Both the position numbers and the translations under genes were made by a program. A model generated the notes under the pieces. It saw only the letters and a list, made by a program, of their open reading frames with translations. It searched no databases and was not told where the DNA came from. DNA of 64,000 nt from an uncultured Candidatus Peribacteria bacterium (GTDB lineage: Bacteria > Patescibacteriota > Gracilibacteria > UBA1369 > 2-02-FULL-48-14): assembly GCA_964441065.1 (NCBI GenBank), contig CAYTWD010000001.1, positions 73,285-137,284 on the forward strand, written 5' to 3'. Shown in pieces: positions 2,756 to 60,077 of this stretch; position 1 is the stretch's first letter; every line of letters starts with the position of its first letter.

Positions 2756-5700
2756 ATGGCAACTAGTAGACCAACAACAGGGGCAGATGATCCAAGTGTG
2801 CCTCAACAACCAGATAGAGTTGAATCTAATCCCGATCCCGCTAATGATTTTGCCGGAGATGAGCCCACTTTAGCTGGCGCTCAACCAGTTGTAGATGTAA
2901 AGAAGTCAATTAAAGATAGAGCTGGAGAAGTAATCGGCTTAATTGACGAAACGCTCGGAGCAACGGAATTTAAAAAGAATACAGCAAGAGTAGTAGGGGG
3001 AGCTAAACTGCTAAATGAATACTTGGCAAAGAATAATACTGCAACGGAAGCCGAGCAAAAAGCTTTTCTTGAACAAAAAGAATACAGTGCAGATGAGATC
3101 GCTGAAATTACTTCGGCGATAAAGAATATTGAAACTCACAAACGCGATCAAGAAGAGAAAAGGAAAGCCGAAGCTGAAGCAAGAAAAACGGCCACAGAAA
3201 ATGCTAAGAAAAAATCAAAACCCGAACATTTTCACCCTGAAAAACTTATTCTCGCGACAACTCTCGCAGTTCACGCCGGAACTTCTTTAATTGGAAGCGC
3301 GGCAGACGCGACTGTGTCCGTTGTAAAAGGCGGAGGACGACTAATTGTGGAAGAAGTTGTTGGATTAGGAAACAGTGCTGTTGATTTGGGTAAACAAGTT
3401 GGAAAAACATTGGTTTATCCTTTTGGACGAATCGGATTTGGCGCAAAAAATAGAGCTTCTCGAGCTTTGGATTGGGCGATTAATTTCCCAACTCCACCCG
3501 CAACCGTAAAAAAATCACACGCGCCGGTTCACAAAGACGAGGCAAAGGAAGAAAATGCTACTGAAACATCTACACCGTCTTCATCCACATCAACTTCAGA
3601 AAAGAAAAACATTTTCTCAAGAGGCTTGAGCGCGATTGCAAATGGAGTTTCTTCCGCAGCGAGTTCAGCTTGGGATTTAACAAAACGGGCTTGGTATAGA
3701 ACTAAACAAGGTGCATTGATTTTAGTTGCGACCCCGATTGCTTTAGTTGGAGGCGCGCTTGAAGGTGCGGCGCTTGCAATTCCACACGACATCATTGGTG
3801 TTCATTGGGAAGGCGAAGCATCGGTTAGTGAAACTGGCGCGGCATCTCGAAAAACCACAGACAAAGGCTTCCACATTGATGGCGGCGCGGCCGGCATTGT
3901 ACTTTCCGCGGGTAAAATGTTAAAAGACATTGTTTGGGATGCACCAATCCGAGCCTTTGAAGAACAATTGACTACTATAAAGGAGACGCCGGTTGAAGCG
4001 GATGAAGTGAAACCAGCGAAACCTGCTAAACCTGCTAAACCAGCCGAACCAGCTGCAAAACCTGCGGAGCCGGCGAAACCCGCTGAACCCGCAACAGGTG
4101 GTGGTGATGCAAAACACCCTGAAGAGCATCCTGAAGAACACCACGAAGATGACAAAAAGAAAAGTCTGGAGCCTATATATACAGACCGAAAAAAGAGTGT
4201 AGATGGAGGGAAAAAAGGAACAGGTTTCCTTGGCGCATTAAAAGTTGTGAGCGATGTTATGAGAGAAGATAACGTCTCTACAGCAGATTTTGAAAAAGCA
4301 GTCGACGCAATGGATGAAGCAATGGGTAAAACAGACGGCAGTTTGGCCGGAAGTCTTGCAAAAGGACTTAGATCATTATTCGGTCCCTCGGATATTCTTA
4401 ATTTCGATTACAAAACACTCGGCGCAAGAATGATGAAGTTAAAAACCAAAGAACGCGAACAGTTTTTCAGATCGCTTGATATGGTTGAGTTTAGAAAAGA
4501 GTTTAGGGTTTTGATTGAGACACCGGCAGCAGCGACGAACACTCTTACAAGACTTACCGCCGCAATGAAAACAGATGATGGAAAAGCTGAAGTAAAAAGA
4601 CAAATCGCCAATTTGGTGAATCACACCGGCCCATTGGATCCCGGTGAATTAGGAGCATTACTTGATGCTCTTCAAGAAAAACTTGGGATTAGAGTAGAGC
4701 CTCCCGTATCTACACCAGAAACACCACAAAGGTCACTATGGGTTGCACTCCAACAGGTAAGGGCAAATTTTGCACCTGAGACTATTACTCCACCTCCTGC
4801 GACTCCTCTGCCGGCAAACACCAGACTTCGTGATCTCTTCCATGGCCCTGAAAGCACAACAATAGATATTAATTATAAGGCATTGGGTGAACAGATATTT
4901 AATTTGAAAGAAGGAGATAGAGCTAAATTCATCAATTCGTTTGATGACGCTAAATTTACTACAGAGTTTGCCATGCTATCATCAACACCTCCAGCTAACG
5001 CTGCAGCCAATTTAAGTAATTTGTTGGACAACGATGACGATGGATCAATTAAGAGAACAGCTAAAACTGAGTTTATGAATCTCCTTAAAACAGATCGTAA
5101 ATTAACAGACACAGAAGTTTCATCAAGAATTGATATTTTAGAAAGAAAACTTGGTTTATTGCCTCGTCCCACTCCACCAGCAACATTAACAAGTCAGCAA
5201 GCTCGAGTATTAGAATTGCTTAGCCATGTTCGTGCAGCTTTATCACTTAATACAAATATCGATAAAATTTTTGCACCTGAAACCGCTCAAACTTTTAATT
5301 ATGCAAAATTGGGTGAGAATATTAACAAAATAAAGACCCCACAACAAAGAGATAAATTCTTACAAAATTACGATAAAAATGAATTTGAAACTTACTTTAG
5401 ATCAATACTTAACCCGGCCGCAATAGATCAAAACACAAAAAGTAATCTTAAAACGGTAAAAGAAAGAATTGCTTCACTGATGGGTTATCCTGATGAGGCG
5501 GAAGTTAGTGCAAATGAATTTGCAACTAGAATAAGTAATTTTGTTGCTACTTTAACACCACCCGCCCCAACTGTAAGGCCAGGAATTTGCAAAGATATTG
5601 AAGATATTAGTACTGCCATGGTGGGCCCGGGACCGGTATATAATCCAGACAAGCTCAAAGCAATTTATCATCCTGAGAAATCTGTGCAAAGAATTAAGAT

Positions 5701-6094
5701 TGAAACAGGAAATTTTGGAGATCAATTATCCAATCTTCGTGACGAAGCTGAAGTTCTAGGATTTCTTAGAGGTTTCTCCCCAAGTATGATTAGTAATTCA
5801 TATTCCTATTTACCAAGACTACTGAGTGACAGTGATGTACCGGGTATTGTTGCTACAAATAAGGCTGATTTACAAAGGGACATCAGACAATTTTTAGATG
5901 ATTCAAAAGATAAAACAGGATTAGATTTTATAATAAATGAAATGAAAGGGAAACTAGCATTAGTCAGGACTGGTACACCACATCATTCCGAATTTACACA
6001 GACAGATCAGTCAAAAATTAATACAATCGTTACTTTTTTAAATACACAAGCAAAAGTTGCTGCAGATAATGCACATTTAATATTTGTACCCTAG
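2756..6094 (+). CDS. Giant repetitive protein, function unknown (1112 aa)
   Basis: Uninterrupted 3.3-kb ORF. It has a disordered Pro/Asp-rich N-terminus, a PAKPAKPAKPAEPAAKPAEPAKPAEPA tract, an HPEEHPEEHHEDD tract, and four tandem modules of about 145 aa each ending in a Pro-rich linker. I recognise no family. Confidence 0.8.
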   Translation: MATSRPTTGADDPSVPQQPDRVESNPDPANDFAGDEPTLAGAQPVVDVKKSIKDRAGEVIGLIDETLGATEFKKNTARVVGGAKLLNEYLAKNNTATEAEQKAFLEQKEYSADEIAEITSAIKNIETHKRDQEEKRKAEAEARKTATENAKKKSKPEHFHPEKLILATTLAVHAGTSLIGSAADATVSVVKGGGRLIVEEVVGLGNSAVDLGKQVGKTLVYPFGRIGFGAKNRASRALDWAINFPTPPATVKKSHAPVHKDEAKEENATETSTPSSSTSTSEKKNIFSRGLSAIANGVSSAASSAWDLTKRAWYRTKQGALILVATPIALVGGALEGAALAIPHDIIGVHWEGEASVSETGAASRKTTDKGFHIDGGAAGIVLSAGKMLKDIVWDAPIRAFEEQLTTIKETPVEADEVKPAKPAKPAKPAEPAAKPAEPAKPAEPATGGGDAKHPEEHPEEHHEDDKKKSLEPIYTDRKKSVDGGKKGTGFLGALKVVSDVMREDNVSTADFEKAVDAMDEAMGKTDGSLAGSLAKGLRSLFGPSDILNFDYKTLGARMMKLKTKEREQFFRSLDMVEFRKEFRVLIETPAAATNTLTRLTAAMKTDDGKAEVKRQIANLVNHTGPLDPGELGALLDALQEKLGIRVEPPVSTPETPQRSLWVALQQVRANFAPETITPPPATPLPANTRLRDLFHGPESTTIDINYKALGEQIFNLKEGDRAKFINSFDDAKFTTEFAMLSSTPPANAAANLSNLLDNDDDGSIKRTAKTEFMNLLKTDRKLTDTEVSSRIDILERKLGLLPRPTPPATLTSQQARVLELLSHVRAALSLNTNIDKIFAPETAQTFNYAKLGENINKIKTPQQRDKFLQNYDKNEFETYFRSILNPAAIDQNTKSNLKTVKERIASLMGYPDEAEVSANEFATRISNFVATLTPPAPTVRPGICKDIEDISTAMVGPGPVYNPDKLKAIYHPEKSVQRIKIETGNFGDQLSNLRDEAEVLGFLRGFSPSMISNSYSYLPRLLSDSDVPGIVATNKADLQRDIRQFLDDSKDKTGLDFIINEMKGKLALVRTGTPHHSEFTQTDQSKINTIVTFLNTQAKVAADNAHLIFVP
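4009..4092 (+). repeat. In-frame (P-A/E-K/P) low-complexity tandem repeat inside the 1112-aa protein
   Basis: aaaccagcgaaacctgctaaacctgctaaaccagccgaaccagctgcaaaacctgcggagccggcgaaacccgctgaacccgca encodes KPAKPAKPAKPAEPAAKPAEPAKPAEPA. Confidence 0.85.
4379..5990 (+). repeat. Four divergent tandem protein modules of about 430-460 nt inside the 1112-aa protein
   Basis: Modules start near 4379, 4835, 5267 and 5663. Shared pattern: (F/I)xxPE/S..(F/I)(D/N)YKxLGxxxxxLKxxxxxxFxxxxDxxxFxxxF....P(A/P)....., ending in PPxxTP-type linkers. The fourth module is the most divergent. Confidence 0.6.
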
Positions 6095-6169
6095 GCTGAA
6101 TCAGTACAAACATTTGACAAACCCCTCCTTTTAGTCTAACGTTCAAAGCCTTTCTAGCTTTGTTCAGAT

Positions 6170-9100
6170 ATGGCAAAAGATAGTCCAACCGATGGAAGAT
6201 TACTTGAGAATATTTTCTATGGTACGCCAGTTTATGGAGAAATTAGAACTCCGGATGGACGTATTTTGACGGAAGTTCATAGAGGCAGATTAGATGACGC
6301 AAGAAGACACGAGCAAACCACGGCACTTCAAGGAGAAATTGTTAACGCGCTTAAAGGTATTCACGGTGGACAAACAATGGTTTCGCGAGATGCTTTTTTA
6401 AATAGAGGTGCAGAAGTTGCAGAAGCTTTGGGTCAAGTTTCAGGTGCTTTTCAAGAGATGCGCGGAGGACAAAGAGAAATGATTGAATCCAGCAGATTGC
6501 TGGCTAATATTTCCGGACAAGGTTTTGATGCAGTAAATAATACACTGCGTGGAGTTGAAGCAGGTTTATCCGGAGTAGGTTCAACTCTCACAATAATGGA
6601 AGGAATTGCAAGATCTACCGATACAAAACTCGGCAAAGCAAATGAAACTTTGGGTGACATAGATCATTCTGCGAATAAACTGAGAATGGAAACAAGACGT
6701 GGCTTGGGAGATGTAAATGCAAATCTCGGTGGTGTTAATAGAAATCTTGAAGGTATAAAAGGTCCAAAATTAGACAGCAAAACTTTAAGAGATGCCTTAG
6801 TTGATGAAGAAGTTTTCTTTTTAACACTTAGCGCATATACGAAGGGTTTACTTAATGAAGAGGGTCAGAGGTGTTTAACCGGATTTATTTATTCGAAATT
6901 TGGTGGAAACGAGCGTCGGGAAGATTCAAAATCTGTTACGGGTTTCACTTCAACTCGAGAAGAAGTTGAAAGTTATATGATGAGCAAGATTAAAGAGAAG
7001 CACGAAGCTAGTTTAAGAGGTGCAATAAGTCAACGAAGTAGAGATTTAATAGATGCCCAGTATGATAAAATGATGGCGGAGTCTGAGGAAGTTGTATCTA
7101 TCCTTTCTAACCCATCCGAACTTCTTTCGAGCACAGACGCAATTTATAAATTGCAAATATTGGAGGGAGTTCAACAAGCAACAGGAGATGAAAATCTTCT
7201 CTCTTTCACTCAGTCCGCTCGAGCATTGGTTGCAATGGCTGAACAAGCAAAGAGAAGTCCTATTCCACAAGAATTTCTTGTTGATTTAACAAACTTGAAC
7301 TTGTTGAGTCCTGAGCTTCAACATTCAATAAAAAGAAATGATCGAAGATCTCGTTTAAGTGGAACGATGGTCGATTTAACATTGAATGGTATAGATGCTC
7401 TTCGACAGGGTGATTATGCGATTGCTCAAAGAGAAAGAATTGAAGGTCTTACAGAGCAACTTCTTGGACATTCTGAAATTGGAACAATACAAAGATCCGC
7501 ACAACTTGAACTGATGAAGCACCAGTTGAGGGTTAATATTGGTGTTTCCAGAATTTTGAATACTGTTGCCGCAGTTGAACTTAGAAATGAAAGACACTTG
7601 GACTCAATTTCAAAATCATCGTTAGAAGCTCGTGATCATTTGGCAGGGCTGGTAAGCATCGGGACTGAATCTAAGGAGGAACTTGCAAGAATTGCTATTC
7701 TACAAGAGAAGACGGGAATGAGTCTTGGGGAAATTAGGGATATTATTCAGGTTTCTGAAGGACACTTGGCCAGAGGAGAAGGCCATTTAGAAAATATTGC
7801 CCAATTGGAGGCGAGTTCAGGAATGAGATTGGAAGAAATTAGAGATATAGTTTCAATCTCACAGGATCACTTAGCTAGAAGTGCAGGGCATCTTGGAGAT
7901 ATAGCGAGTATTGGTGCAGAGTCTAGAGACGAGCTTACAAGAATGAGAACATTGCAAGAGAGAAGTGGGATGGATTTGGAACAAATTAGAGGAATAATCG
8001 GAACTTCATCAGATCATTTGGCAAATATAGTGCTAATTGAGGCAAGCTCAGGCATGAGACTATTAGATATTCGTGAGTTACTTGCTAGAGCAGATGCCAG
8101 ATCAGAATCAATGGAAGGCATTCAGTTGAGATCAGAATCACATTTAAGAGGAATGCTTGGGGCGATGGGATTTATCGCAGAAGGGATGGTTAATTTGGAA
8201 GAAATTGGAACTCAAATTGTTGAAGTTATGGGAGTGAGCGCAGTAGCAAATTTCAGAGTTTTAGATGAAGTCTCGCATCAAATTGACCGTGCTCGTCAGG
8301 AAACTTCAGCACAATTGATGACTATCAATGACACAATCCATCAACTTGTTAGGGGTATTTATGCGACAAACACTCAACTCGAAAGAATTGTACATTTAAC
8401 TGAAGAAAGTTTACAAAATACCGCTCTGCAAAGAGTAAGACAAGGATTTTTGTTACTTGAAACAGCTGAAAGTGAAGATGATTATCTTGATGCAATTGCA
8501 GTATTTAAAAAAGGAATTGAGGATGATCCAACTGTGATTGAAAATCACTTGGGAATTGCTCTTGCATCCGAAGGCATTGGAGATAAAAAAGAAGCAAAAA
8601 AAAGATATAGAAGTGCAGCAAGATTGGCACCCGAAGATAAATCACAAGCAACATCAAGTGCTTGGCAAAATTTGGCACGAATTAATTTTGAAGAAGACGA
8701 TTTTCCAAATGCAATTAAACACTGCAAATTAGCTCTAAAATCCAACCCTAAAAGCTTTGAAATGAGACTGATATTATGTAGGGCACTTGCTTTGTCTGGC
8801 ATGGAAGATGAAGCTCTGGATTTGATGTTTACAGTATATAAAGAGGATCCAACTTATTTAACTAAATTTAAAAATGATAAGGCATTTAATTTTTCATTAT
8901 TGGCAGAGCTCTATAAAAAAATTCTTAAAGAAATTCCAGCATTAAAAATGAAGAAAGAGGAGTCAAAATTTATTTTTGACGAACTTTTGAGGATCGGTGA
9001 ATATGAAGCGATATCACCTGTACTTATATCGATTTTAAAGAAAAGCCCAAAGAGTTTTTTGAAAATAATGCAAACTAATTCAGACTTTCCAGATTCAGTA

Positions 9101-31457: not shown

Positions 31458-32657
31458 TTGGTGAGTAAAATTAATTCAGACGCAAAAAAAGAGCGACATA
31501 AGAAACTCTTTGAGGGGCACTACCAAACCCGTTTGGGTCACGTTTGGTTCCTTGCAATAAGAGCTGTGAAGAAGGTTTGGGATTTCATTACTCCTTCGAG
31601 GAAAATCTTACCTTCGTTTCGTCATCCACTTGACGGAATGCCCGCTCCAAAAAGACTTTACACGACCGTTGCCGCTTGGAGCATGGTAATTTTACTTATG
31701 ACTTCTGTAAATATCAGTAGCGCAAACTATGATGAAGGAGCTTATTTTGCATCTGATGAATTGGGCTTGCAGGAAGGTTTTGATGTGATTACTGATGAAG
31801 AGGGCTACATTATTAAATCATCTCCACTCGAAGGGGAGGCCCTTTTTGCACAAAATAGAGCCGAACAAATTGAGCATGAGGTTCAACCTGGTGACACTCT
31901 ATCTGTAATTGCTTACAGGTACGGTCTCAAAAGTAGCACGATAAAATATGCAAATCCCACAATTGGAAGTGGCGATTATCTTAAAATAGGTCAAAAATTA
32001 AACATTCCTGCAAAAGACGGATACTACGTTAAGGTAAAAGCTGGAGATTCGATAGCAAAACTTGTTGAAAAATATAAGGGTGATCTTAATAAAACCAAAG
32101 AATTCAACAAAATTACTGAGGATTCTGATTTGATTGCAGATACAAGCCTCTTAATTATTGATGGTAAACCTGAAATAACATACATTGCCACCCAATCCTC
32201 AGGTGGCGGAGCTTCGAGCAGACCCTCTGTGTTTCAATACGATATTCCTCCAAATGCTCAAGGCTGGATTTTACCGACCCATGGTCTTGTAACTCAAATT
32301 TTCCACGGTGGGCACTTCGGATATGACGTCGCGGATCGTTCACAACCGCCCATTGTTGCTGCTGCGGACGGGCTTGTTATTAAAGCTAGCTCAGGAAGTT
32401 ATGGAGGCGGTTATGGAAATCACATAATTATTGACCACGGCAACGGCTACACAACTCTTTATGCTCATGCCGAAGCGCTTTATGTGAATCTTGGCGACCA
32501 TGTTAAACAAGGTCAGGTTATTGCAAAAATGGGTCGAACAGGGCGTGTTCGTGGCGCGACAGGGATTCATTTGCATTTTGAAGTCTCATACAAAGGAAAA
32601 AAACTTCCGATAAGTGCACTTGGGTCTGAATTCACAGGTTACGGTACAAAATGGTAA
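31458..32657 (+). CDS. LysM-domain M23 metallopeptidase
   Basis: 399 aa with a GTG start. Two LysM-like segments (VQPGDTLSVIAYRYGL.., VKAGDSIAKLVEKY..) and the M23 motifs GNHIIIDHGNGYTTLYAH and HLHFEV are present. Confidence 0.8.
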   Translation: MVSKINSDAKKERHKKLFEGHYQTRLGHVWFLAIRAVKKVWDFITPSRKILPSFRHPLDGMPAPKRLYTTVAAWSMVILLMTSVNISSANYDEGAYFASDELGLQEGFDVITDEEGYIIKSSPLEGEALFAQNRAEQIEHEVQPGDTLSVIAYRYGLKSSTIKYANPTIGSGDYLKIGQKLNIPAKDGYYVKVKAGDSIAKLVEKYKGDLNKTKEFNKITEDSDLIADTSLLIIDGKPEITYIATQSSGGGASSRPSVFQYDIPPNAQGWILPTHGLVTQIFHGGHFGYDVADRSQPPIVAAADGLVIKASSGSYGGGYGNHIIIDHGNGYTTLYAHAEALYVNLGDHVKQGQVIAKMGRTGRVRGATGIHLHFEVSYKGKKLPISALGSEFTGYGTKW

Positions 32658-32872
32658 AACTTTTAATCCGACTTTATCAGAAAACGATTTCTCCTGATCA
32701 TTCTTGGCTCAGGCATTATTTTCCGGGTGGATTTTGCAGGTTTACCCCAAGTTGCAGCGCCTATACGTATGAAGCGATAAAAAAGCACGGAAATATTAAA
32801 GGCATTTTGATGGGAATTTGGCGTGTTATTCGCTGTAATCCTTGGTCGCGCGGCGGTATTGATTTGCCGTAA
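32651..32872 (+). CDS. yidD: Membrane protein insertion efficiency factor YidD
   Basis: 73 aa. LIRLYQKTISP...CRFTPSCSAYTYEAIKKHG...RVIRCNPW..GG.D. Confidence 0.85.
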   Translation: MVKLLIRLYQKTISPDHSWLRHYFPGGFCRFTPSCSAYTYEAIKKHGNIKGILMGIWRVIRCNPWSRGGIDLP

Positions 32873-32908
32873 AATAAAGTGTAAAGTCACCCGGGTTTCC
32901 TATCAATT

Positions 32909-34471
32909 ATGACTGAAGACATAAGAAAAATCGCCAGAGTTTTGATCAGCGTGTCTGATAAAAGTGAACTAATTTCCTTAGCCGAGGCTTTGAAAAAGCA
33001 CGGCGCGGAAATTTTATCTACAGGAGGAACCGCAAAATTTCTGAAAGAGAATGGTTTTGAAGTAACAGATGTTTCTGATTACACCGAATTTCCTGAAATG
33101 ATGGGGGGAAGACTCAAAACCCTTCACCCAAAAATTCACGGCGGAATTTTGATGAGACGCGGACTAGATGAAGCAGAAGCCGAGAAAAACGGCATCAAAC
33201 CAATAGACATGGTTGTGATAAATCTTTACCCTTTCCGCGAAACAATTTCAAAAGACGGCGTAACTGAAGAAGAAGCTATAGAACAGATAGACATTGGTGG
33301 TCCGGCAATGCTTCGTTCGGCTGCAAAAAATTTCAAATCCGTGACTCCGCTCACCGCGATTAATGATTACAAATTAATAATCGAAGAACTCGAAAAATTT
33401 GGTGGAATTACTTTGGAAACACGAAAAAAACTAGCGATTGAAGTCTTTGATAAAACCTCAAGTTACGATTCTGCGATTGCGGAATATTTAAGATATAAAG
33501 GCGAACCGGTTGAACTTCTGAACTTGCATTATGAAAAAGTCATGAGTCTTCGTTACGGGGAAAATCCACACCAAAAAGCCGCATTTTTCCGTGATCCAAC
33601 AGATCATTTCCCAAATGTAACAAACGCAAAAGTTTTACAGGGGAAACAACTGTCTTACAACAATATTATAGACACCGATGCGGCACTCGAGCTTGTGAAA
33701 GATTTTGATAAGGCCGCGGCGGCCGTGATTAAACACACTAATCCTTGCGGTTGTGCTACTGCTGAAAAAATAACCGACGCATTCACTCTCGCTTTTGAAG
33801 TTGATCCAAAATCAGCTTTCGGCTGTGTAATTGCTTTAAACCGACAATGCACAAAAGAAATCGCAGAATACATTCAAACAAATAAAATTTTCGTTGAAAT
33901 AATTGTCGCAACAAAATTTGAAAAAGCCGCTCTCGAGATTCTCTCCAAAAAAGAAAATTTAAGACTTCTTGAAACCGGCGATTTACGCAAAAATCCAAAC
34001 CAGCGCAATATCAAAACGGTCAGCGGTGGAATTCTTGTTCAAACAGCAGATCAATATATTGTCACAGAAAAAGATCTAAAAACTGTCACAAAAAAAGAGG
34101 CAACAGTAGATCAAATTGAAGCTATGCTTTTCGCGCGTGTTCTTGTTAAGCACGTGAAATCAAACTCTGTGGTCTTCGCAAAAACTCACGACAAAGGCGG
34201 TTGTGTTGCCACCGGAATTGGAGCCGGCCAAATGTCTCGAGTTGATGCGGTTATGCTAGCTCGTATGAAAGGCGGTGACAGAATCCCCGGCTCGGTTATG
34301 TCTTCAGACGCATTCTTCCCATTCGCCGACAGCGTTGAAGAAGCGAAAAATGCCGGCGTGACCGCGATAATCCAACCGGGAGGTTCAATACGTGATGCTG
34401 AAGTGATTGCAAAGGCGGATGAGCTGGGAGTGGCAATGATTGTTACGGGTATCAGGAGTTTTAAGCACTAA
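32909..34471 (+). CDS. purH: Bifunctional AICAR transformylase / IMP cyclohydrolase
   Basis: 520 aa. ALISVSDK-type MGS domain (VLISVSDKSELISLAEAL), GGRLKTLHPKIHGGIL, DIGGPAMLRSAAKN, and a C-terminal ..QPGGSIRD. Confidence 0.95.
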   Translation: MTEDIRKIARVLISVSDKSELISLAEALKKHGAEILSTGGTAKFLKENGFEVTDVSDYTEFPEMMGGRLKTLHPKIHGGILMRRGLDEAEAEKNGIKPIDMVVINLYPFRETISKDGVTEEEAIEQIDIGGPAMLRSAAKNFKSVTPLTAINDYKLIIEELEKFGGITLETRKKLAIEVFDKTSSYDSAIAEYLRYKGEPVELLNLHYEKVMSLRYGENPHQKAAFFRDPTDHFPNVTNAKVLQGKQLSYNNIIDTDAALELVKDFDKAAAAVIKHTNPCGCATAEKITDAFTLAFEVDPKSAFGCVIALNRQCTKEIAEYIQTNKIFVEIIVATKFEKAALEILSKKENLRLLETGDLRKNPNQRNIKTVSGGILVQTADQYIVTEKDLKTVTKKEATVDQIEAMLFARVLVKHVKSNSVVFAKTHDKGGCVATGIGAGQMSRVDAVMLARMKGGDRIPGSVMSSDAFFPFADSVEEAKNAGVTAIIQPGGSIRDAEVIAKADELGVAMIVTGIRSFKH

Positions 34472-34567
34472 ATTACAGGTTTGCACGGGCAGATTTTGAG
34501 CGCAGGCAGAATGCATTTGACACAATTCTTTATTTGGATGTAAGTTAAGATCCTTTTAATAAAAATC

Positions 34568-35281
34568 ATGGCAAAAGTAGATGAATTCAGAGTAGCCTCA
34601 GAAGGTGCAACTGCAACACAACCAAAAGAAGTACCTGCTCTTCTTGATGTCCAACAGGATACAGGCGAACAAGTCGTAGCAGTTTCTAAAGCAACAGAAT
34701 CGATAGAAGTAGATTCTAGACTGACGGAATTCTACGAAATGTACGGGAGATGGAGCGCAGTAAGTAAATCAAGACTAGATTGGCCGAGAGTTCAAGATGC
34801 AATGCTCGCAGATGACGGAGCACTTCTTGAACGAGTGAAGGAAATCCCAAAAGGCTCTGAAGGAGAAGACCCTGTTATGTTCGGAGCTGATAGAGATGGG
34901 AACATTCTTTTCGCAAATGGAGGAAAGCACGCAATCCTCACTGGTATGCCGTTTGCACAAACAGTTCAAAAGGCAAAAGAATTGGGACTTATACTATTTT
35001 CATGTGTATTGCATGGTAATTATAATGATGAAGGGAAAAAGACTTCTGACTATGCTCAAATGAGTGAAGAAATGCACCTGTATCAAGAATTCACGAATTC
35101 AGATATTGTAGAACCTGAATTAGATCAAAATGAGGCATCTATATGGCTTCCAAAGAGCGATCTGTTAGGACTAATTTGGGTTATGTCATATTCAAAATAC
35201 AATTACAGTTTTGGTGTTCAGTCGAAGTATTTATCGATCCGTACTCGTGGAGTACGTTTAATGCTACGTGCAAAGGCTTAG
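34568..35281 (+). CDS. Hypothetical protein, possibly DUF4256-like
   Basis: 237 aa. The arrangement LDWPRVQDAMLADDGALL..., a Gly/Glu-rich loop and a C-terminal RG.R..LR weakly recalls DUF4256. Low certainty. Confidence 0.35.
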   Translation: MAKVDEFRVASEGATATQPKEVPALLDVQQDTGEQVVAVSKATESIEVDSRLTEFYEMYGRWSAVSKSRLDWPRVQDAMLADDGALLERVKEIPKGSEGEDPVMFGADRDGNILFANGGKHAILTGMPFAQTVQKAKELGLILFSCVLHGNYNDEGKKTSDYAQMSEEMHLYQEFTNSDIVEPELDQNEASIWLPKSDLLGLIWVMSYSKYNYSFGVQSKYLSIRTRGVRLMLRAKA

Positions 35282-35346
35282 TCCTCAAAGCAAAAACTTC
35301 CCCTCGACAAAATCCGAAAAGTTGATAGTATAGCTAAAATAAAGCT

Positions 35347-36375
35347 ATGAGCAACGATATTAAAGATTTTGCAATCGCCACACTGGGGAGCCATACAGCT
35401 CTTCAAATACTCAAGGGTGCCAAAGAAGAGGGAATGAAAGCTATAGCAATTTGCACGAAGGAAACAAGAAAGCCATACGACAGTTACGGAGTCGCGGATG
35501 AAATTATAGAAATTGATTCCTTCGATAATTTTTTTGAAATCGAAAAGATTTTGATGGAGAAAAATGCAATTGTGATTCCACACGGGAGCTTTGTTAGCTA
35601 TCTTGGTCCTGAAAAAATCAAAAATAACTTGAAGGCGATGCATTATGGCTCAAAGGGAATTTTGATTTGGGAATCCGATCGTTCAATGGAAAGAGTGTGG
35701 CTTAAAGACGCGGGTTTAGATCTCCCTAAAATTTATAAAACACCTGAGGAAATCGACGGTCCGGCTATTGTTAAATTTCACGGAGCAAAGGGCGGATTCG
35801 GTTATTTTATAGCGCATTCACCTGAAGAATTCCACGAACGCATAAAAAAATTTAAAGATCCCGAAGATTACGTAATTCAAGAATATGTGGTTGGTGTTCC
35901 AATGTATGTTCATTATTTTCAATCAGCGCTCACAGGAGAACTCGAAATTATGAGCTTCGACAAACGTTATGAATCCAATGCCGATTCAATCGGACGAATC
36001 GCCGCAAAAGATCAAATTGCTGCAGATATTCAAACGAGTTACACAATTACCGGAAACATGCCGATTGTTGTGCGTGAATCAATGCTTCCAATGTTTTTTC
36101 AAATTGGCGAAGATGTTGTTAAAGCTTCGAGAAAACTCGAGGGCGTGCCAAAAGGTCTTTACGGACCGTTCTGTCTTGAAGGAATTATTGATCCAAATTT
36201 GAACTTCCGTGTTTTTGAAATTTCTGCAAGAATTGTTGCCGGAACGAATCCTTACACAAACGGTTCGCCTTACACTTGGTTGAAATACAACGAACCAATG
36301 TCCACGGGTCGCCGCATAGCTCGCGAAATTAAAACTGCAATCCAAACCGGTCGTTTACAAGATATTTTAGGATGA
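35347..36375 (+). CDS. purP: Archaeal-type FAICAR synthetase (formate- and ATP-dependent AICAR formyltransferase) PurP
   Basis: 342 aa. It aligns end to end, from memory, with Methanocaldococcus PurP: IATLGSHTALQILKGAKEEG, IPHGSF, WESDRS, IVKFHGAKGGFGYF, DKRYESNADS, ITGNMPIVVRESMLP, GPFCLEG, RIAREIK. Confidence 0.85.
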   Translation: MSNDIKDFAIATLGSHTALQILKGAKEEGMKAIAICTKETRKPYDSYGVADEIIEIDSFDNFFEIEKILMEKNAIVIPHGSFVSYLGPEKIKNNLKAMHYGSKGILIWESDRSMERVWLKDAGLDLPKIYKTPEEIDGPAIVKFHGAKGGFGYFIAHSPEEFHERIKKFKDPEDYVIQEYVVGVPMYVHYFQSALTGELEIMSFDKRYESNADSIGRIAAKDQIAADIQTSYTITGNMPIVVRESMLPMFFQIGEDVVKASRKLEGVPKGLYGPFCLEGIIDPNLNFRVFEISARIVAGTNPYTNGSPYTWLKYNEPMSTGRRIAREIKTAIQTGRLQDILG

Positions 36376-37517
36376 AATACACAATAGCCGTTCTCGGAGG
36401 TCACAGCGCATTAGACGTTTGCGCCGGAGCAAAAAAACACGGCTTCAAAACGCTCGCGGTTTGCCAAAAAGGTAGAGAAAAAACTTACGCCGAATATTAT
36501 AAAACTCGTGGAAAACTCGGCTGCATTGATGAGGTTCTTACTGTGGAAAAATTTTCCGACATCACAAAACCCGAAATCCAAAAAGAACTCAAAAAAAGAA
36601 ATGTAATTTTCATTCACAATCGTTATTTCTGGGTTTATTGCAATTTTGATGAAGTTGAGGACATAAAGAAATTTACTGCACCAATCTATGGTAATCGTAA
36701 ATTTGTTAAATTTGAGGAGAGAAATATAGGGAGAAATCAATATTGGTTGCTTCAACAAGCAAAAATAAGGACTCCAAAAGTAATAAGAGATGGACTTGTA
36801 GGTTTTGCTAACGAAAAAGATCTGAGAAAAGTATTAGACGACCACTTTGTTGTAAAAAAAGGTGGTCCTTTGATAGTAAAGGTTAATGAAGCACAACGAA
36901 AATACGAAAGAGCCTTCTTTATTATCAACTCGGAACACGATTACTTTGAAATAAGTGAAAGAATGATAAAAAATGGAGTAATAAATAGAGATATACTAAA
37001 TTCTGCATTAATTGAAGAGTTTGTAATTGGGGCACAGGTCAATTTCAACTTTTTTTACTCAACAATTAGTCAGAGATTAGAGTTGATGGGAACCGATGCT
37101 CGAAGACAAACAAGTTTAGATGGTTTCTTGAGACTTGATGCTGAAAGACAGTTAGAGTTATTAAAAAAAGGTTATAGACCATCAATGATTGAAACTGGGC
37201 ATTATTCAGTTACTATTAAAGAATCTCTAATAGAAAAAGCCTATGAAATCGGTGAGAAATTTGTGAAAGCAACAAAGGAGCATTATGGCCAATCCATAAT
37301 CGGTCCATTCGCACTTCAGGGTGCTGTTGCCTCTGAAAATGGCCGTGAAGAACTAGTAATTTTCGATGTCTCAATGCGAATTCCGGGCTCACCGGGAACA
37401 AAATTCACTCCATACACAAGTTATCTTTGGGGCGAACCCATGAGCTACGGCGAAAGAATCGCGATCGAAATTAAAGAGGCGATTAAGGCTAAGAAGCTGG
37501 ATCTAGTTTTGACATAA
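36372..37517 (+). CDS. Second, more divergent PurP-family ATP-grasp paralog
   Basis: 381 aa. IAVLGGHSALDVCAGAKKHGF, IGPFALQG, VFDVSMRIPGSPG and ERIAIEIKEAI parallel the PurP motifs. ATGA overlap with purP. Confidence 0.7.
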   Translation: MKYTIAVLGGHSALDVCAGAKKHGFKTLAVCQKGREKTYAEYYKTRGKLGCIDEVLTVEKFSDITKPEIQKELKKRNVIFIHNRYFWVYCNFDEVEDIKKFTAPIYGNRKFVKFEERNIGRNQYWLLQQAKIRTPKVIRDGLVGFANEKDLRKVLDDHFVVKKGGPLIVKVNEAQRKYERAFFIINSEHDYFEISERMIKNGVINRDILNSALIEEFVIGAQVNFNFFYSTISQRLELMGTDARRQTSLDGFLRLDAERQLELLKKGYRPSMIETGHYSVTIKESLIEKAYEIGEKFVKATKEHYGQSIIGPFALQGAVASENGREELVIFDVSMRIPGSPGTKFTPYTSYLWGEPMSYGERIAIEIKEAIKAKKLDLVLT

Positions 37518-37662
37518 AATTTAGGAATTTTACTTTTTCAGCTTTCTCCCTTGCCGCATCAGCGATCCATTTATTAAAAGTAGTTCCTTCTTCTTTTGCT
37601 AGTTTTCCGATTCTAGTTTTTTCCTCCTTTGTAAATGGAACTAAAACTTTTTTAAGCTTCAT
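37489..37662 (-). CDS. Small ribbon-helix-helix-like protein (57 aa, below the ORF-track cutoff)
   Basis: Hand translation gives MKLKKVLVPFTKEEKTRIGKLAKEEGTTFNKWIADAAREKAEKVKFLNFMSKLDPAS. The pattern beta-strand (VLVPFT), helix (EEKTRIGKLAKEEG), helix (FNKWIADAAREKA) is CopG/RHH-like. It overlaps the 3' end of the purP paralog by 29 nt. Confidence 0.3.
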   Translation of the reverse strand: MKLKKVLVPFTKEEKTRIGKLAKEEGTTFNKWIADAAREKAEKVKFLNFMSKLDPAS

Positions 37663-37760
37663 AAAAATAGGTGAGTATGTATTTACTTTATAGTATATCT
37701 GCTTAATTAAAACAAATAATCCACCTGTAAAATTATTGTATAATTCTACAGATAAGACTT

Positions 37761-37774
37761 TACCGCCGGCGGTA
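37761..37774. promoter_or_regulatory. GC-rich perfect 14-bp palindrome TACCGCCGGCGGTA nested in a larger inverted repeat
   Basis: The palindrome lies at 37761-37774. The outer arms CACCTGTAA (37722-37730) and TTACAGGTG (37778-37786) bracket it. It sits in the AT-rich spacer between the RHH-like ORF and hicB. Confidence 0.3.
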
Positions 37775-37941
37775 ATATTACAGGTGATGTTTTGCCAAAT
37801 ATGTTTTATATAAATCGTATGTCAATGCAATTCTTTGCCTTCCTGAAAAATTCAGGAATCTTTCAGGACTTTGTAAGTTCTGAACGCTATCCTTATTACT
37901 TAATCCATAATATAATCTATATGAAAACATATATTGATTTC

Positions 37942-38169
37942 ATGAAAAAGAAACAACTTTTCACAGTTATAATTGAAGAAGACAACAATGGCTTCTTTGC
38001 TTATTGCCCACAGTTACAAGGTTGTTATACTCAAGGTGAAACTTACGAAGAGGCACTCTTGAATATTAAAGATGTGATAAAACTACATACGGAAGACAGG
38101 ATTGAGGAGGGGCAAACTTGGAGAAGCCCAAAGTCCATAAATGTCACTTCATTAGAGGTAAGCATTTAA
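37942..38169 (+). CDS. hicB: HicB-family antitoxin (UPF0150 fold)
   Basis: MKKKQLFTVIIEEDNNGFFAYCPQLQGCYTQGETYEEALLNIKDVIKLH matches the HicB N-terminal domain. The ORF-track start at 37792 adds an implausible leader. Confidence 0.7.
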   Translation: MKKKQLFTVIIEEDNNGFFAYCPQLQGCYTQGETYEEALLNIKDVIKLHTEDRIEEGQTWRSPKSINVTSLEVSI

Positions 38170-38171
38170 TT

Positions 38172-38216
38172 ATGGTCAAATTACCCAGATTAAATGCCAA
38201 AGATTTTACATCCTAA
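38172..38216 (+). pseudogene. hicA: Truncated hicA toxin remnant
   Basis: Two nt after the hicB stop, ATG GTC AAA TTA CCC AGA TTA AAT GCC AAA GAT TTT.. encodes MVKLPRLNAKDFTS*. This is the conserved HicA start (M.KLPR.SGKE) followed by a premature TAA. Confidence 0.4.
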
Positions 38217-38259
38217 AATCATTAAACAGATATTTAGAGATGCTGAGTTAAATTAACTC

Positions 38260-39780
38260 CTACTCCAATCCTTTCCCAAGCTTCCTAACCAGCTTCCACG
38301 TTTTTTCACGTATCGATTCAACGGTTTTCCAGCCCGCTCTGTAACACAAAACGTGTTGCTCCAAATCATTTCCAATTTTTCCACGAGCATTGTCTGAAAT
38401 CCCCAAGGTTTTACCTGTTGGCAAACCTGGATAAACGTCTAACATTGCATTAATTGATCCGTCAGCAAGTCTCATATTAAATGAGTCTTGATCAACAGCA
38501 TTTCCATCACTTGTGTTCAAAAAGTAAGCACCATTTTTCATTTTTCCAATCAACTCTTTGTTAACAAGTCCGTGAGCTTTGTGTGGTGCGACGCAAAGAC
38601 TAATGACATCCGAATCTTCAAATAATTCATCCAAATTCGCATATTCAAATCTTGGATCCAAAGTGTTTGGCGAATAGTATTTCACTTTCATTCCAAGCGT
38701 TTCTGCAATTTCCGCGGTTCGAGTTCCAATTCTTCCCAAACCAACAATCCCAAAAGTTTTATCTGCCAAATTCTCTTCAATATGAGCAAGCTCACTCACA
38801 TCAATTATTCGGTCATTCGGCAATAGATCCAGCCAAATCGGAGCTTTTTTTGTGTCGCAAATAAAGAATCCATCTTCCGTACAATCAGACATATTTTCAG
38901 TCGGAACCATCTCCATTTGAAATCCATCTCTCAAGATTTTTTCCAATCTCGCTTTTCCGGGCATTTTTGCATCCAAAATAGTAATTTTCTTGCCTTTCAA
39001 TAATTGCTCCGGAATTACTTCCTCAGGTTTTTTATTACCATTTATAAGCTCGCCATAAGTATCGGCGCTTCTTCCGAGTTTGTGAAAATGATGACTGAAC
39101 CGACCTCGTCTTGTGGCTTTTTCATTCTGCAAAAATTTTCTAAATTTTTTGAAAAGTTCACCAATAGTTCCAATCACAAAGTCATCTTCCGTATAAGCTT
39201 TCTCATTCGTGGATTTATTTCTTATCATTAACTCAATCATTCCTCCAACATTTAATTCGGAAACCGAATCGGTCCCGTAATCAGGAATGGAATCAACATA
39301 AATCCCTGCATTTTTTGCCATCGCCACATTCATTCTGTGTTCAAATTCATGAGTCCAACAAATAATACTTTTCATGTCGCCTTTTTTAATCCACTCTTTT
39401 AAAACGGAATCGGGAATTTCAGTCCAACAAGTGACAACACCATCCGCATCTTTAGTTTGATTCAACATAAATTGAGCAGTTCGGTTTTCTCTAATATCCG
39501 CCTCGGTCCAACATTGAATATTTCCCATTTTTGCCAAATGTTCATCTGAAATTCTGTCTATATTTTCAGGCAAACTACTTGGCCACATTCTCACGTTCGC
39601 AGTCGAATCGGATTGAAAATTCTCAGGCAGAGTCCAAGCTTTTCCATTTTCTTGCCATTTCAAAGGCACGCAGTCAATTTCAGCCTTGCCGCTTTTCATT
39701 AATTCACCCAATCCCTCAACGTGCTCAGGGTAGAAAATAACCGTATCCAGAACCTCTAAATGTTTGTAACCTTCTTTCAT
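38260..39780 (-). CDS. Atypical D-isomer-specific 2-hydroxyacid dehydrogenase-fold protein with a large insertion and substituted catalytic residues
   Basis: 506 aa. The NAD loop FGIVGLGRIGTRTAEIA is present. Signature 3 reads MKNGAYFLNTSDGNAVD, with Asp where the invariant Arg sits. DVYPGLP replaces DV..EP. About 150 extra residues lie between the substrate-binding lobe and the NAD lobe. Confidence 0.6.
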   Translation of the reverse strand: MKEGYKHLEVLDTVIFYPEHVEGLGELMKSGKAEIDCVPLKWQENGKAWTLPENFQSDSTANVRMWPSSLPENIDRISDEHLAKMGNIQCWTEADIRENRTAQFMLNQTKDADGVVTCWTEIPDSVLKEWIKKGDMKSIICWTHEFEHRMNVAMAKNAGIYVDSIPDYGTDSVSELNVGGMIELMIRNKSTNEKAYTEDDFVIGTIGELFKKFRKFLQNEKATRRGRFSHHFHKLGRSADTYGELINGNKKPEEVIPEQLLKGKKITILDAKMPGKARLEKILRDGFQMEMVPTENMSDCTEDGFFICDTKKAPIWLDLLPNDRIIDVSELAHIEENLADKTFGIVGLGRIGTRTAEIAETLGMKVKYYSPNTLDPRFEYANLDELFEDSDVISLCVAPHKAHGLVNKELIGKMKNGAYFLNTSDGNAVDQDSFNMRLADGSINAMLDVYPGLPTGKTLGISDNARGKIGNDLEQHVLCYRAGWKTVESIREKTWKLVRKLGKGLE

Positions 39781-39915: not shown

Positions 39916-40659
39916 ATGAATCAAAAACTGCTCGAAAAATTGGGAATGACCGCTCGTGAAGTTAAACTTTATCTAAAACTTTTGGAATTGGGTTCAAGCC
40001 CGGCAAACAACTTATCAAGACGTTTGGAAGAGAACAGGACTTCAACATACAGTCTACTTCAATCACTTCAAAAGAAGGGTTTTGTGACATACTCGCTCAA
40101 GCGAAACGTGAAATATTTTTACCCGATTGATCCGGGAATTCTTGTTGATCAATACGTCCACACTGCGAATAATCTTCAGTCCGCCCTTCCTGAACTGCTC
40201 GCTGTTTTTAATAAGTCCACCAACAAACCAAGAATTGCATTTTATGAAGGAGTGAACGGGATAAAACAACTTTGCGAGACGCTTCTTGAAGTACCCGGTT
40301 CCACCCGCTTTAGTTTTATGGGAGTTGATGAATCCACAATTCATCCGGAAATTAAAGAGTATTTTGAGACCGATTTTCTAAATAGACGAGTCGCCGCAGA
40401 TATTAAATATAAAGCGATTGTAACAGGTTTAATTCCCTTTGCTTCCGGCTACAAAAAAACTCATGAAGCTCAACTTCGCGAGCTGAAATGGGTCGATCCC
40501 AAAAAATTTCCAATGAATATTCAAATCGACATTTATCCTCACAATAAAGTTGCAATTTATTCTTACAATAAAGACGAAATGATGGGCATTGTTATTGAAC
40601 ACGAATCTTTCTACTCAACAATGAGATCGGTTTTTCAGATTGCGTGGAGTGGCCTTTAA
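39916..40659 (+). CDS. TrmB-family HTH transcriptional regulator (paralog 2 of 3)
   Basis: 247 aa. REVKLYLKLLELGSSPANNLSRRLEENRTSTYSLLQSLQKKGFV and FYEGVNGIKQL are present. Confidence 0.75.
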   Translation: MNQKLLEKLGMTAREVKLYLKLLELGSSPANNLSRRLEENRTSTYSLLQSLQKKGFVTYSLKRNVKYFYPIDPGILVDQYVHTANNLQSALPELLAVFNKSTNKPRIAFYEGVNGIKQLCETLLEVPGSTRFSFMGVDESTIHPEIKEYFETDFLNRRVAADIKYKAIVTGLIPFASGYKKTHEAQLRELKWVDPKKFPMNIQIDIYPHNKVAIYSYNKDEMMGIVIEHESFYSTMRSVFQIAWSGL

Positions 40660-59489: not shown

Positions 59490-60077
59490 TTATAAATGCC
59501 TTTTCCTCGATAGCAACCTTATCGCCTCAGGATAATATTTTTTCTCAAGAGCCTGAACTTTCTCTTTCAAACTTTCGCCAGTTTCACCTTCTTCAATCGC
59601 GACTTTCTTTTGGATTAAAATCTCTCCTCCATCAACTTCTGCAGTCACAAAATGAATCGTCATTCCACTTTCTTTTTCACCCGCGGCAATCACCGCAGAA
59701 TGCACATTTTGCCCATAAAAACCTTTCCCACCATATTTTGGAAGAAGCGCCGGATGCACATTTATAATTTTTCCTTCATATTTTTTCACAAATCCCGGAG
59801 TCAAAATCTTCATGTAACCAATTAAACAAACTAAATCTACTTCGCCCACAGCCGCCGCCAACTCCTCATCATATTCTTCTTTACTTTTACCGTTTGGATC
59901 AACAAAAACCGCCTTCACGCCATGCGTTCTCGCCTTCTCAAGCGCTCCGCAATTTTCCACATTACTAACAACCACCGCAACTTCCACATCCGGTAAAAGC
60001 CCCGCCTCCATTTCATCAAAAATAGCCTGTAAATCCGTGCCGCGAGTTGATGCTAATATTGCAATTTTATAAGTCAT
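59490..60077 (-). CDS. purN: Phosphoribosylglycinamide formyltransferase
   Basis: 195 aa. IAILASTRGTDLQAI, NVHPALLPKYGG and the HFVTAEVDGGEI motifs are present. Confidence 0.9.
   Translation of the reverse strand: MTYKIAILASTRGTDLQAIFDEMEAGLLPDVEVAVVVSNVENCGALEKARTHGVKAVFVDPNGKSKEEYDEELAAAVGEVDLVCLIGYMKILTPGFVKKYEGKIINVHPALLPKYGGKGFYGQNVHSAVIAAGEKESGMTIHFVTAEVDGGEILIQKKVAIEEGETGESLKEKVQALEKKYYPEAIRLLSRKRHL

Follow-up and report, generated by a model that had tools for sequence, protein, structure and literature searches.

The stretch of DNA analyzed here (the window, 64,000 nucleotides of contig CAYTWD010000001.1 from an uncultured Candidatus Peribacteria bacterium) raises the question of why a bacterium should carry two tandem genes of the PurP family close to a complete purH, which encodes the folate-dependent enzyme for the same step of purine synthesis, the formylation of 5-aminoimidazole-4-carboxamide ribonucleotide (AICAR) to formyl-AICAR (FAICAR). 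purP is treated as an archaeal signature gene and was found in 0 of 1,266 complete bacterial genomes (PMC6486802). The two genes, purP-A and purP-B, are an anciently diverged pair of paralogs, of types Ib and II, that is carried by many archaea. On balance, we favor the view that the pair was obtained by exchange with archaea, has been kept together with purH and likely carries out a formate- and ATP-dependent formylation of AICAR. The genome (1.19 Mb in 46 contigs, 96% complete) belongs to the candidate phyla radiation (CPR), and the closest homologues are labelled Patescibacteria, Peregrinibacteria, Peribacteria or Gracilibacteria. The main features of the locus are as follows.

35347-36375, plus strand: purP-A, 342 amino acids, a PurP cluster Ib ("PurP II") ATP-grasp protein
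36372-37517, plus strand: purP-B, 381 amino acids, a PurP cluster II ("PurP III") ATP-grasp protein
36372-36375, plus strand: ATGA start/stop overlap of purP-A and purP-B, read as ...GGA TGA / ATG AAA
32909-34471, plus strand: purH, full-length bifunctional AICAR transformylase and inosine monophosphate (IMP) cyclohydrolase

The two PurP paralogs and their types

The initial annotation had described two tandem purP genes, the first of archaeal type along its whole length, joined by an ATGA overlap and preceded by a complete bifunctional purH some 900 nt upstream. All of this was borne out, with 875 nt between the end of purH and the start of purP-A. The Pfam domains PF06849 and PF06973 cover the full length of both purP-A (E values of 3e-39 and 4e-68) and purP-B (8e-37 and 1e-60), and hidden Markov models, by which these open reading frames (ORFs) might have turned out to belong to a different ATP-grasp family, assigned both to PurP-family domains. 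purP-A aligned end to end with the structures of Pyrococcus furiosus PF1517 (PDB 2r84, E value of 1e-108) and M. jannaschii MJ0136 (2r7k, 5e-101) and shows 58% identity to PF1517 along its whole length; purP-B also aligned end to end with both structures (6e-57 for MJ0136), and the two window proteins share 33% identity. purH reached 682 bits on NCBIfam NF002049 (cut-off of 402) and matched the Pfam domains MGS and AICARFT_IMPCHas. Chance as an explanation of these gene finds is far exceeded. The ATGA overlap suggests, from the layout of the genes, that purP-A and purP-B are translationally coupled. A scan of positions 32500-38300 for promoters and terminators gave counts no better than those of shuffled sequence, and the spacing of the genes is therefore the only operon evidence.

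Archaeal PurP proteins form three groups, Ia (PurP I, with MJ0136), Ib (PurP II, with PF1517) and II (PurP III, with PF0421), the last two of which occur together in a one-to-one ratio, often as neighbors (PMC3261824; PMC6486802). In the numbering of MJ0136, used from here on, every archaeal PurP-like protein has His27 and Arg314. Cluster I is marked by Asn258, a residue in contact with AICAR's carboxamide, and by a glycine-rich P-loop, (K/R)GG(K/R)G, and cluster II by His258 and by a basic loop, longer by two residues and poor in glycine, that replaces the P-loop (PMC3261824). We applied these diagnostic residues of Brown et al. 2011 to 63 representatives and then to 213 sequences. Every full-length member was typed cleanly as cluster I or II except for one protein of a metagenome-assembled genome (MAG) labelled "bacterium" (L087), which has Pro at position 258 and groups with cluster II.

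By these marks purP-A is a cluster I protein, with N237 at the position of Asn258 and the loop GAKGGFG, in which the fourth position is Phe, a position that is variable across cluster I in the wider data set. It keeps the equivalents of His27, Ser94, Lys156, Asn258, Ser266 and Arg314. purP-B belongs to cluster II, with H277 at position 258 and the loop NEAQRKYERAFF, which is two residues longer and free of glycine. It is without both marks of cluster I, as expected for its type, and keeps His27, Lys156, Glu200, Arg228, Glu265, Ser266 and Arg314. The formyl-contacting equivalents of His27 and Arg314 are H16 and R295 in purP-A and H11 and R336 in purP-B. His258 together with the motif ER(A/G)FF is common to all 123 of the 123 cluster II sequences in our set. 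The ATP-grasp core (Lys156, Glu200, Arg228, Glu265, Glu/Asp310 and Ser312) reaches 90% conservation or more in both clusters, and both window proteins have it.

The tree of representatives agrees with this typing. The split between clusters I and II has 99% support, with purP-A and purP-B on opposite sides of it. purP-A falls into subgroup Ib, in a clade of PF1517, CPR and Nano-/Woesearchaeota sequences (99/96) that leaves MJ0136 outside at a 100/100 node, and purP-B is placed inside the cluster II clade. The second ORF had been read at first as a more divergent paralog; it is indeed a member of the PurP family, but what looked like local divergence is its ancient cluster II type.

Both copies appear to be maintained. 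Across the family, 25 positions carry an identical residue in the two clusters at a conservation of 90% or more (among them His27, Lys156, Glu200, Arg228, Glu265, Ser266, Ser312 and Arg314), and another 11 are fixed but different between the clusters (G163E, E199Q, Y208N, H210N, E230Q, N258H, E297Q, E310D and three more). Such a combination of shared and cluster-specific positions reads as that of two specialized functional proteins, not of an enzyme and a decaying copy. In comparison with a genome of the same genus (G091), the ratio of nonsynonymous to synonymous substitution rates (dN/dS) was approximately 0.03 for purP-A, 0.03 to 0.04 for purH and 0.07 to 0.12 for purP-B, rough values because dS is near saturation; dN was far below dS for both purP genes. 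For more distant pairs, in which dS is saturated, identities were used instead.

The closest known system is thus the archaeal Ib and II pair (PF1517, PDB 2r84-2r87, and PF0421), which has the same paralog types, diagnostic residues and loop lengths, the same one-to-one co-occurrence and adjacency, and a context of purine genes that is also seen here. The archaeal genes are adjacent in Sulfolobales, Pyrobaculum islandicum and Korarchaeum (PMC3261824; PMC6486802). The bacterial pair differs from them in its CPR host, in forming a module with a bacterial-type full-length purH and in the purP-B of this lineage, which has Tyr at the position of Ser94 and mostly an insertion of approximately 20 residues in the lid. 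MJ0136 (cluster Ia) belongs to the same ATP-grasp family and shares with purP-A all six residues listed above as well as the glycine-rich loop. However, it is a single gene product that works alongside PurO, with neither a cluster II partner nor PurH, whereas in the window purP-A is of cluster Ib and purP-B is without Asn258 and the P-loop.

Distribution in the class and the role of the pair

To place the locus in its lineage we examined 301 genomes of the class. Members of the PurP family were present in 90, and 86 of these had two matches, 1 to 2 kb apart wherever both coordinates were listed and side by side in the window, as in almost every locus examined. In the order of the window the pair is found in 37 of 39 genomes; the two that are without it are also without purH and purC, indicating that de novo purine synthesis was lost there, so that within the order the pair tracks the presence of this pathway. 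purH was detected in 178 of the 301 genomes, in 93 cases without the pair, and in 85 of the 86 pair-holders, the lone exception being a 91%-complete MAG. The gene order M23 peptidase-purH-purP-A-purP-B is kept throughout both the family and the order as well as in named MAGs of Peregrinibacteria, Peribacteria and Gracilibacteria, sometimes with unrelated insertions between the genes. In a sample of 401 genomes from the phylum, only 9 outside the class had the pair. Two genomes of the same class (G043 and G168) gave matches with 8 to 36 in-frame TGA codons per gene, which implies that the class includes lineages with recoded TGA; one of them (G043) also carries PurP and purH.

The complete Ib and II pair is therefore a stable trait across a bacterial lineage, which conflicts with the archaea-only view of these proteins. 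Proteins of public MAGs have already been named as PurP-type by automated annotation, and in the literature searched we found no paper linking purP to CPR or Patescibacteria; relative to that literature, what is new is the bacterial host of a known archaeal pair.

Under the reading that we favor, an ancestor of the Peregrinibacteria and Gracilibacteria would have acquired the two genes as one unit through an exchange with archaea, among which Nano-/Woesearchaeota of the DPANN group are the nearest relatives, and its descendants would have inherited them with purH as a purH-purP-A-purP-B module. PurP-A would produce formyl phosphate from formate and ATP and then convert AICAR to FAICAR; we infer this activity from the conservation of all the residues that contact formate, AICAR and ATP in MJ0136. 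PurP-B would be a conserved, specialized partner, possibly assembling with PurP-A into a hetero-oligomer. Ring closure of FAICAR to IMP would fall to the cyclohydrolase domain of PurH, and the transformylase domain of PurH would provide a parallel route dependent on 10-formyl-tetrahydrofolate. The two alternative routes for this formylation proposed by the initial annotation are a reasonable reading of the gene content. The neighbors of the pair point to purine metabolism as well: purH here; purA, guaA and purF in DPANN loci; and a purine operon in another CPR class.

Keeping both routes may be akin to the situation of Escherichia coli, in which PurT, an ATP-grasp enzyme, performs with formate and ATP a formylation that is duplicated by the folate-dependent PurN. 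This precedent differs in that PurT acts on glycinamide ribonucleotide (GAR) instead of AICAR, belongs to another ATP-grasp subfamily and is a single protein, and in that the genome studied here is without PurT. Methanosarcinales have been described with a full-length purH, purN and two purP-like genes (PMC3261824), the same seeming redundancy, in which an Ib and II pair stands beside folate-dependent PurH and PurN. Their hosts are archaea that use folates and methanopterin-type cofactors, in contrast to the small-genome bacterium with an ordinary folate pathway described here.

Several observations weigh against this reading. What the proteins of clusters Ib and II do has been asked since 2008-2011. 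Those from thermophiles showed no activity in vitro: PF1517 and PF0421 of P. furiosus were reported not to act as AICAR formyltransferases when tested, and no protein of cluster Ib or II has demonstrated activity, MJ0136 (Ia) being the only PurP assayed positive as a FAICAR synthetase (PMC3261824). A hetero-oligomer of the two proteins would explain this inactivity, since they were expressed singly. All the NCBIfam PurP models, which are narrow equivalogs derived from archaea, matched both window genes, yet under their cut-offs (556-603), with best scores of 421 bits for purP-A (cut-off of 580) and 237 for purP-B (cut-off of 556). Neither fhs nor a pyruvate formate-lyase (PFL) gene was found in the window's own genome, and the source of formate is not evident. 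In a genome that looks sufficient in folate and keeps an unimpaired PurH transformylase domain (see below), the advantage of having a second route is not apparent. Finally, three 99%-complete genomes of the class (G026, G039 and G111) have only cluster II, without cluster I, purH or purC, which argues against an obligate complex of the two proteins dedicated to de novo synthesis. The gene (L003, G039:C2, 9562-10719, and L004, G111:C2, 8957-10132; also in G026) is intact and retains the signature residues of cluster II, and near it lie, among others, genes for a PfkB-family kinase and for phosphoglucose isomerase. These genomes hint at a role of cluster II outside de novo purine synthesis.

Cluster II by itself, or the pair, might serve some purpose other than the synthesis of FAICAR, for example the ring closure to IMP or the joining of a different acid to a different aminoimidazole or purine intermediate. 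Besides the inactive P. furiosus proteins and the cluster II-only genomes, the remodeled region of the substrate and ATP loop in cluster II, with its 11 fixed differences, would fit such a role. So would genomes of other composition: a 100%-complete CPR genome (G580) has the pair with no match in a search for purH, and three more (G458, G504 and G518) combine the pair with a PurH fragment limited to the transformylase. In one of these, from another CPR class (G458), an operon (L097, G458:C17, 4400-13360) comprises purP-I, purA, purP-II, purB, purK, purE, purC and guaA, and the sole PurH-related gene (L094, G458:C6, 4533-5462) encodes a transformylase-only protein of 310 amino acids and lies among cell-wall genes (penicillin-binding protein, MreB). 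We nevertheless consider a different function unlikely, given that the class almost always retains a full-length PurH with the pair and that purP-A keeps every ligand-contacting residue of MJ0136.

A narrower variant is that purP-B is a catalytically distinct enzyme, for example one for the IMP-forming ring closure, such that the pair alone would lead from AICAR to IMP. To our knowledge, no enzyme has been assigned to this ring closure in Crenarchaeota, Thaumarchaeota and Pyrococcus. The cluster II-only genomes, G580 and the three genomes with a transformylase-only fragment hint at a distinct activity of purP-B; in the class, where PurH is full length in 85 of the 86 pair-holders, this variant gains no support, and it appears quite improbable.

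Formylation of AICAR with free formate could also be a hedge against shortage of folate, as the initial annotation had suggested. The chemistry of PurP is independent of folate (PMC3261824), Fhs is absent from the genome, and published genomes of Peribacteria were reported without folate biosynthesis (PMC4736985). The genome of the window contrasts with those reports. It has a folate cluster (C3:19638-24143) with folK (108 bits, cut-off of 54), a PTPS/QueD-like gene, folP (221 bits, cut-off of 163), a pabC-like gene and a pabB-like gene, and also contains glyA and folD. The remaining genes of de novo purine synthesis are present too, purF and purD adjoining folD, and purC, purE and a purB-like gene standing together. 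Formylation of GAR falls to a single gene in the window:

59490-60077, minus strand: purN, folate-dependent GAR formyltransferase

This gene, rightly reported at the outset as a folate-dependent purN, matches the Pfam domain Formyl_trans_N and exceeds the PurN equivalog cut-off (TIGR00639, 170.5 bits against 150.1), and purT was not found in the genome. With PurN only, purine synthesis needs folate regardless of PurP. Also, fhs was detected in only 4 of the 301 genomes of the class, with or without the pair, and since it is missing from the other 297 irrespective of the pair, the latter is not a compensation for missing Fhs. The hedge is therefore quite unlikely. The proposed check of the genome for folate and formyl-tetrahydrofolate genes had a divided outcome, with folD and the folate cluster found and fhs not found. 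Folate auxotrophy, considered separately, was rejected because of the folK, folP, pabB-like and pabC-like genes. As to why both routes should be kept under the reading that we favor, the PurP route may plausibly serve to recycle formate that would otherwise be unusable without Fhs.

A last functional explanation, also put forward initially, is that PurH is retained only for its IMP cyclohydrolase and that the PurP pair does all the formylation of AICAR. The near-universal presence of purH in pair-holders fits a need for the cyclohydrolase, and in some archaea PurP occurs along with a PurH2 that is only a cyclohydrolase (PMC3261824). Against this, the window protein aligns over its full length with solved PurH structures and has the catalytic Lys-His motif (KHTNPCG) intact. 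The transformylase domain is no less conserved than the cyclohydrolase domain; it was slightly more so in every comparison between pair-holders (identities of 94 versus 91%, 79 versus 74% and 61 versus 55%). No genome of the class has a purH reduced to the cyclohydrolase. We regard this explanation as distinctly unlikely. Decay of the transformylase half, for which the active-site residues were to be inspected, was rejected, the motif being intact and conservation of the domain high.

For work on the function of the pair, the lineages described here offer natural variants that can be compared, namely pairs accompanied by PurH, pairs lacking it and cluster II on its own. The window represents the case of the pair with an intact PurH, which is less decisive on function than the lineages without purH. 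Mesophilic and apparently translationally coupled bacterial versions beside purH are, in turn, convenient material for co-expression and complementation.

Phylogeny and origin of the pair

A profile built from purP-A and purP-B yielded 836 representatives after clustering at 50% identity, and a cluster II profile of 7 sequences led to 80 named genome loci. Represented among these loci are Micrarchaeota, Woese-/Nanoarchaeota (with one single-cell genome), Thermoplasmatota, several CPR genomes, MAGs labelled Methanosarcinales and one Spirochaetota MAG. Organism names were available for about a third of the representatives that were looked up, and every named one that falls outside the CPR clade comes from an archaeon (Nitrosocosmicus, Nitrososphaerales, Heimdallarchaeota, Diapherotrites, Aenigmarchaeota and Micrarchaeota). 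The DPANN loci are taken as archaeal from their record titles, their neighbors purA, guaA and purF being domain-neutral.

Trees of the two clusters were rooted reciprocally, that of cluster I (IQ-TREE) with cluster II and that of cluster II with cluster I. In the cluster I tree the CPR clade of the class (94/94) has a Nano-/Woesearchaeota group as a weakly supported sister (51/79). Two CPR genomes of other classes branch off next (92/92 and 98/87), then Thermococcales PF1517 joins (99/96), and beyond it stand further lineages of archaea (100/95 and 100/100). The cluster II tree unites CPR, Nano-/Woesearchaeota and Thermoplasmatota in one clade (100/100), with Micrarchaeota (98/81) and a group containing Aenigmarchaeota (100/98) as sisters and further lineages deeper. 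Both CPR and Nano-/Woesearchaeota loci, the single-cell genome included, have the genes in the order I to II, adjacent or overlapping, while in Micrarchaeota the order is II to I. The agreement of the trees and the shared gene order support the view that the pair moved as a unit between archaea and CPR and that the family is rooted in Archaea. An old transfer of the pair as a unit, affecting the whole lineage, is thus supported. Transfer from archaea had been named at the start as one possible explanation; the phylogeny of both paralogs, run as had been advised, shows CPR nested within archaeal diversity instead of forming a deep bacterial clade, so the archaeal origin is supported, as an old trait of the lineage and not of this one genome. 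With its nearest relatives in DPANN, the pair is a well-resolved case of gene traffic between two ultra-small groups.

MAGs titled "uncultured Methanosarcinales archaeon" (L037, L039, L045, L052, L056, L070, L080, L084 and L086) interleave with Woese-/Nanoarchaeota in both trees, which makes these labels doubtful. A Spirochaetota MAG (L082, CAVYGN010000002.1, a contig of 1.9 Mb) has at 5372-7122 a cluster II gene beside a truncated cluster I gene (209 amino acids), both nested among Woesearchaeota sequences. The pair may have reached this bacterium, which is not a CPR member, by recent transfer, one partner having since decayed.

The competing account of origin is vertical inheritance, with PurP I and II ancestral in Bacteria or in CPR, lost elsewhere and never transferred from archaea. 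The bacterial clade is large and coherent, with conserved synteny. Moreover, CPR are basal and paraphyletic in the cluster II clade with Nano-/Woesearchaeota and Thermoplasmatota. The nodes that bear on the direction of transfer between CPR and Nano-/Woesearchaeota have supports of 51/79 and 72/32, which, like the paraphyly of CPR in the cluster II tree, also counts against the reading that we favor; the last step between these two groups may have gone either way. A single bacterial clade in cluster I was only borderline rejected by the approximately unbiased (AU) test (p-AU of 0.051), and the bacterial sequences may go back to one transfer or to several. Nevertheless, strongly supported archaeal branchings (Methanococcales, Nitrososphaerales, Heimdallarchaeota, Thermococcales, Micrarchaeota and Aenigmarchaeota) lie between the root and CPR, and the rarity of the pair in the phylum outside the class and of purP in complete bacterial genomes (PMC6486802) speaks the same language. 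We therefore take vertical inheritance to be very unlikely.

Within purP-B, one segment has a different history from the rest of the gene:

36672-37181, plus strand: divergent central segment of purP-B (residues ~101-270, lid region), delimited by comparison with the G091 protein

The termini of purP-B are 97 to 100% identical to the protein of this same-genus genome, and the center only 17 to 70%, with no alignment at the DNA level at positions 36787-37005. The center includes the insertion of approximately 20 residues, present in 93 of 119 close homologues, and is nearest to the protein of another lineage (P0122, 85% identity). Such a mosaic is consistent with recombination between lineages; a chimeric assembly seems less likely.

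That an archaeal fragment was mis-binned or mis-assembled into a bacterial genome can practically be set aside: CPR and DPANN are indeed found together, their bins often coming from the same samples, and purP-B is a mosaic, but the genes lie midway in a 141-kb contig among LysM/M23 peptidase, purH and other bacterial-type genes, the GC content is not deviant, and dozens of independent genomes show this arrangement again, some of them assembled as a single contig of 1.3 to 1.5 Mb. Scarcely any room is left either for a recent tandem duplication in this bacterium or its close relatives with a fast-diverging downstream copy, as might be imagined for adjacent, co-oriented and overlapping genes with merely 33% identity and a long terminal branch (0.40) for purP-B: the deepest split of the family separates the two proteins, each copy groups with archaeal sequences of its own type, the cluster-specific residues are those defined in archaea, and the long branch comes from the central segment that is nearest another cluster II lineage. 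Derivation of purP-B from purP-A by recent duplication is refuted by the family tree.

Neighboring genes

One further ORF lies between purH and purP-A:

34568-35281, plus strand: ORF of 237 amino acids with no family match, a local insertion between purH and purP-A

It gave no match in Pfam, NCBIfam, PHROG or PADLOC. The insertion is clean and approximately 820 bp long, and the ORF is missing at this place from the other relatives examined and from G091, where purP-A directly adjoins purH. It stands outside the conserved purH-purP module. Two paralogs in the same genome, on contigs C24 (43% identity) and C9 (38%), indicate that it may belong to a multi-copy gene family, lineage-specific or mobile.

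Directly 3' of purP-B there is an ORF for a HicB-like antitoxin (37792-38169; Pfam PF15919, PHROG 497). It is followed on the minus strand (38260-39780) by a gene for a protein of 506 amino acids, in which a D-2-hydroxyacid dehydrogenase NAD-binding domain is confined to the C-terminal third and the N-terminal ~330 residues are poorly matched. A TrmB-like regulator is encoded at 39916-40659 and in seven other places of the genome, which amounts to at least 8 paralogs, 24 to 33% identical, in 1.19 Mb.

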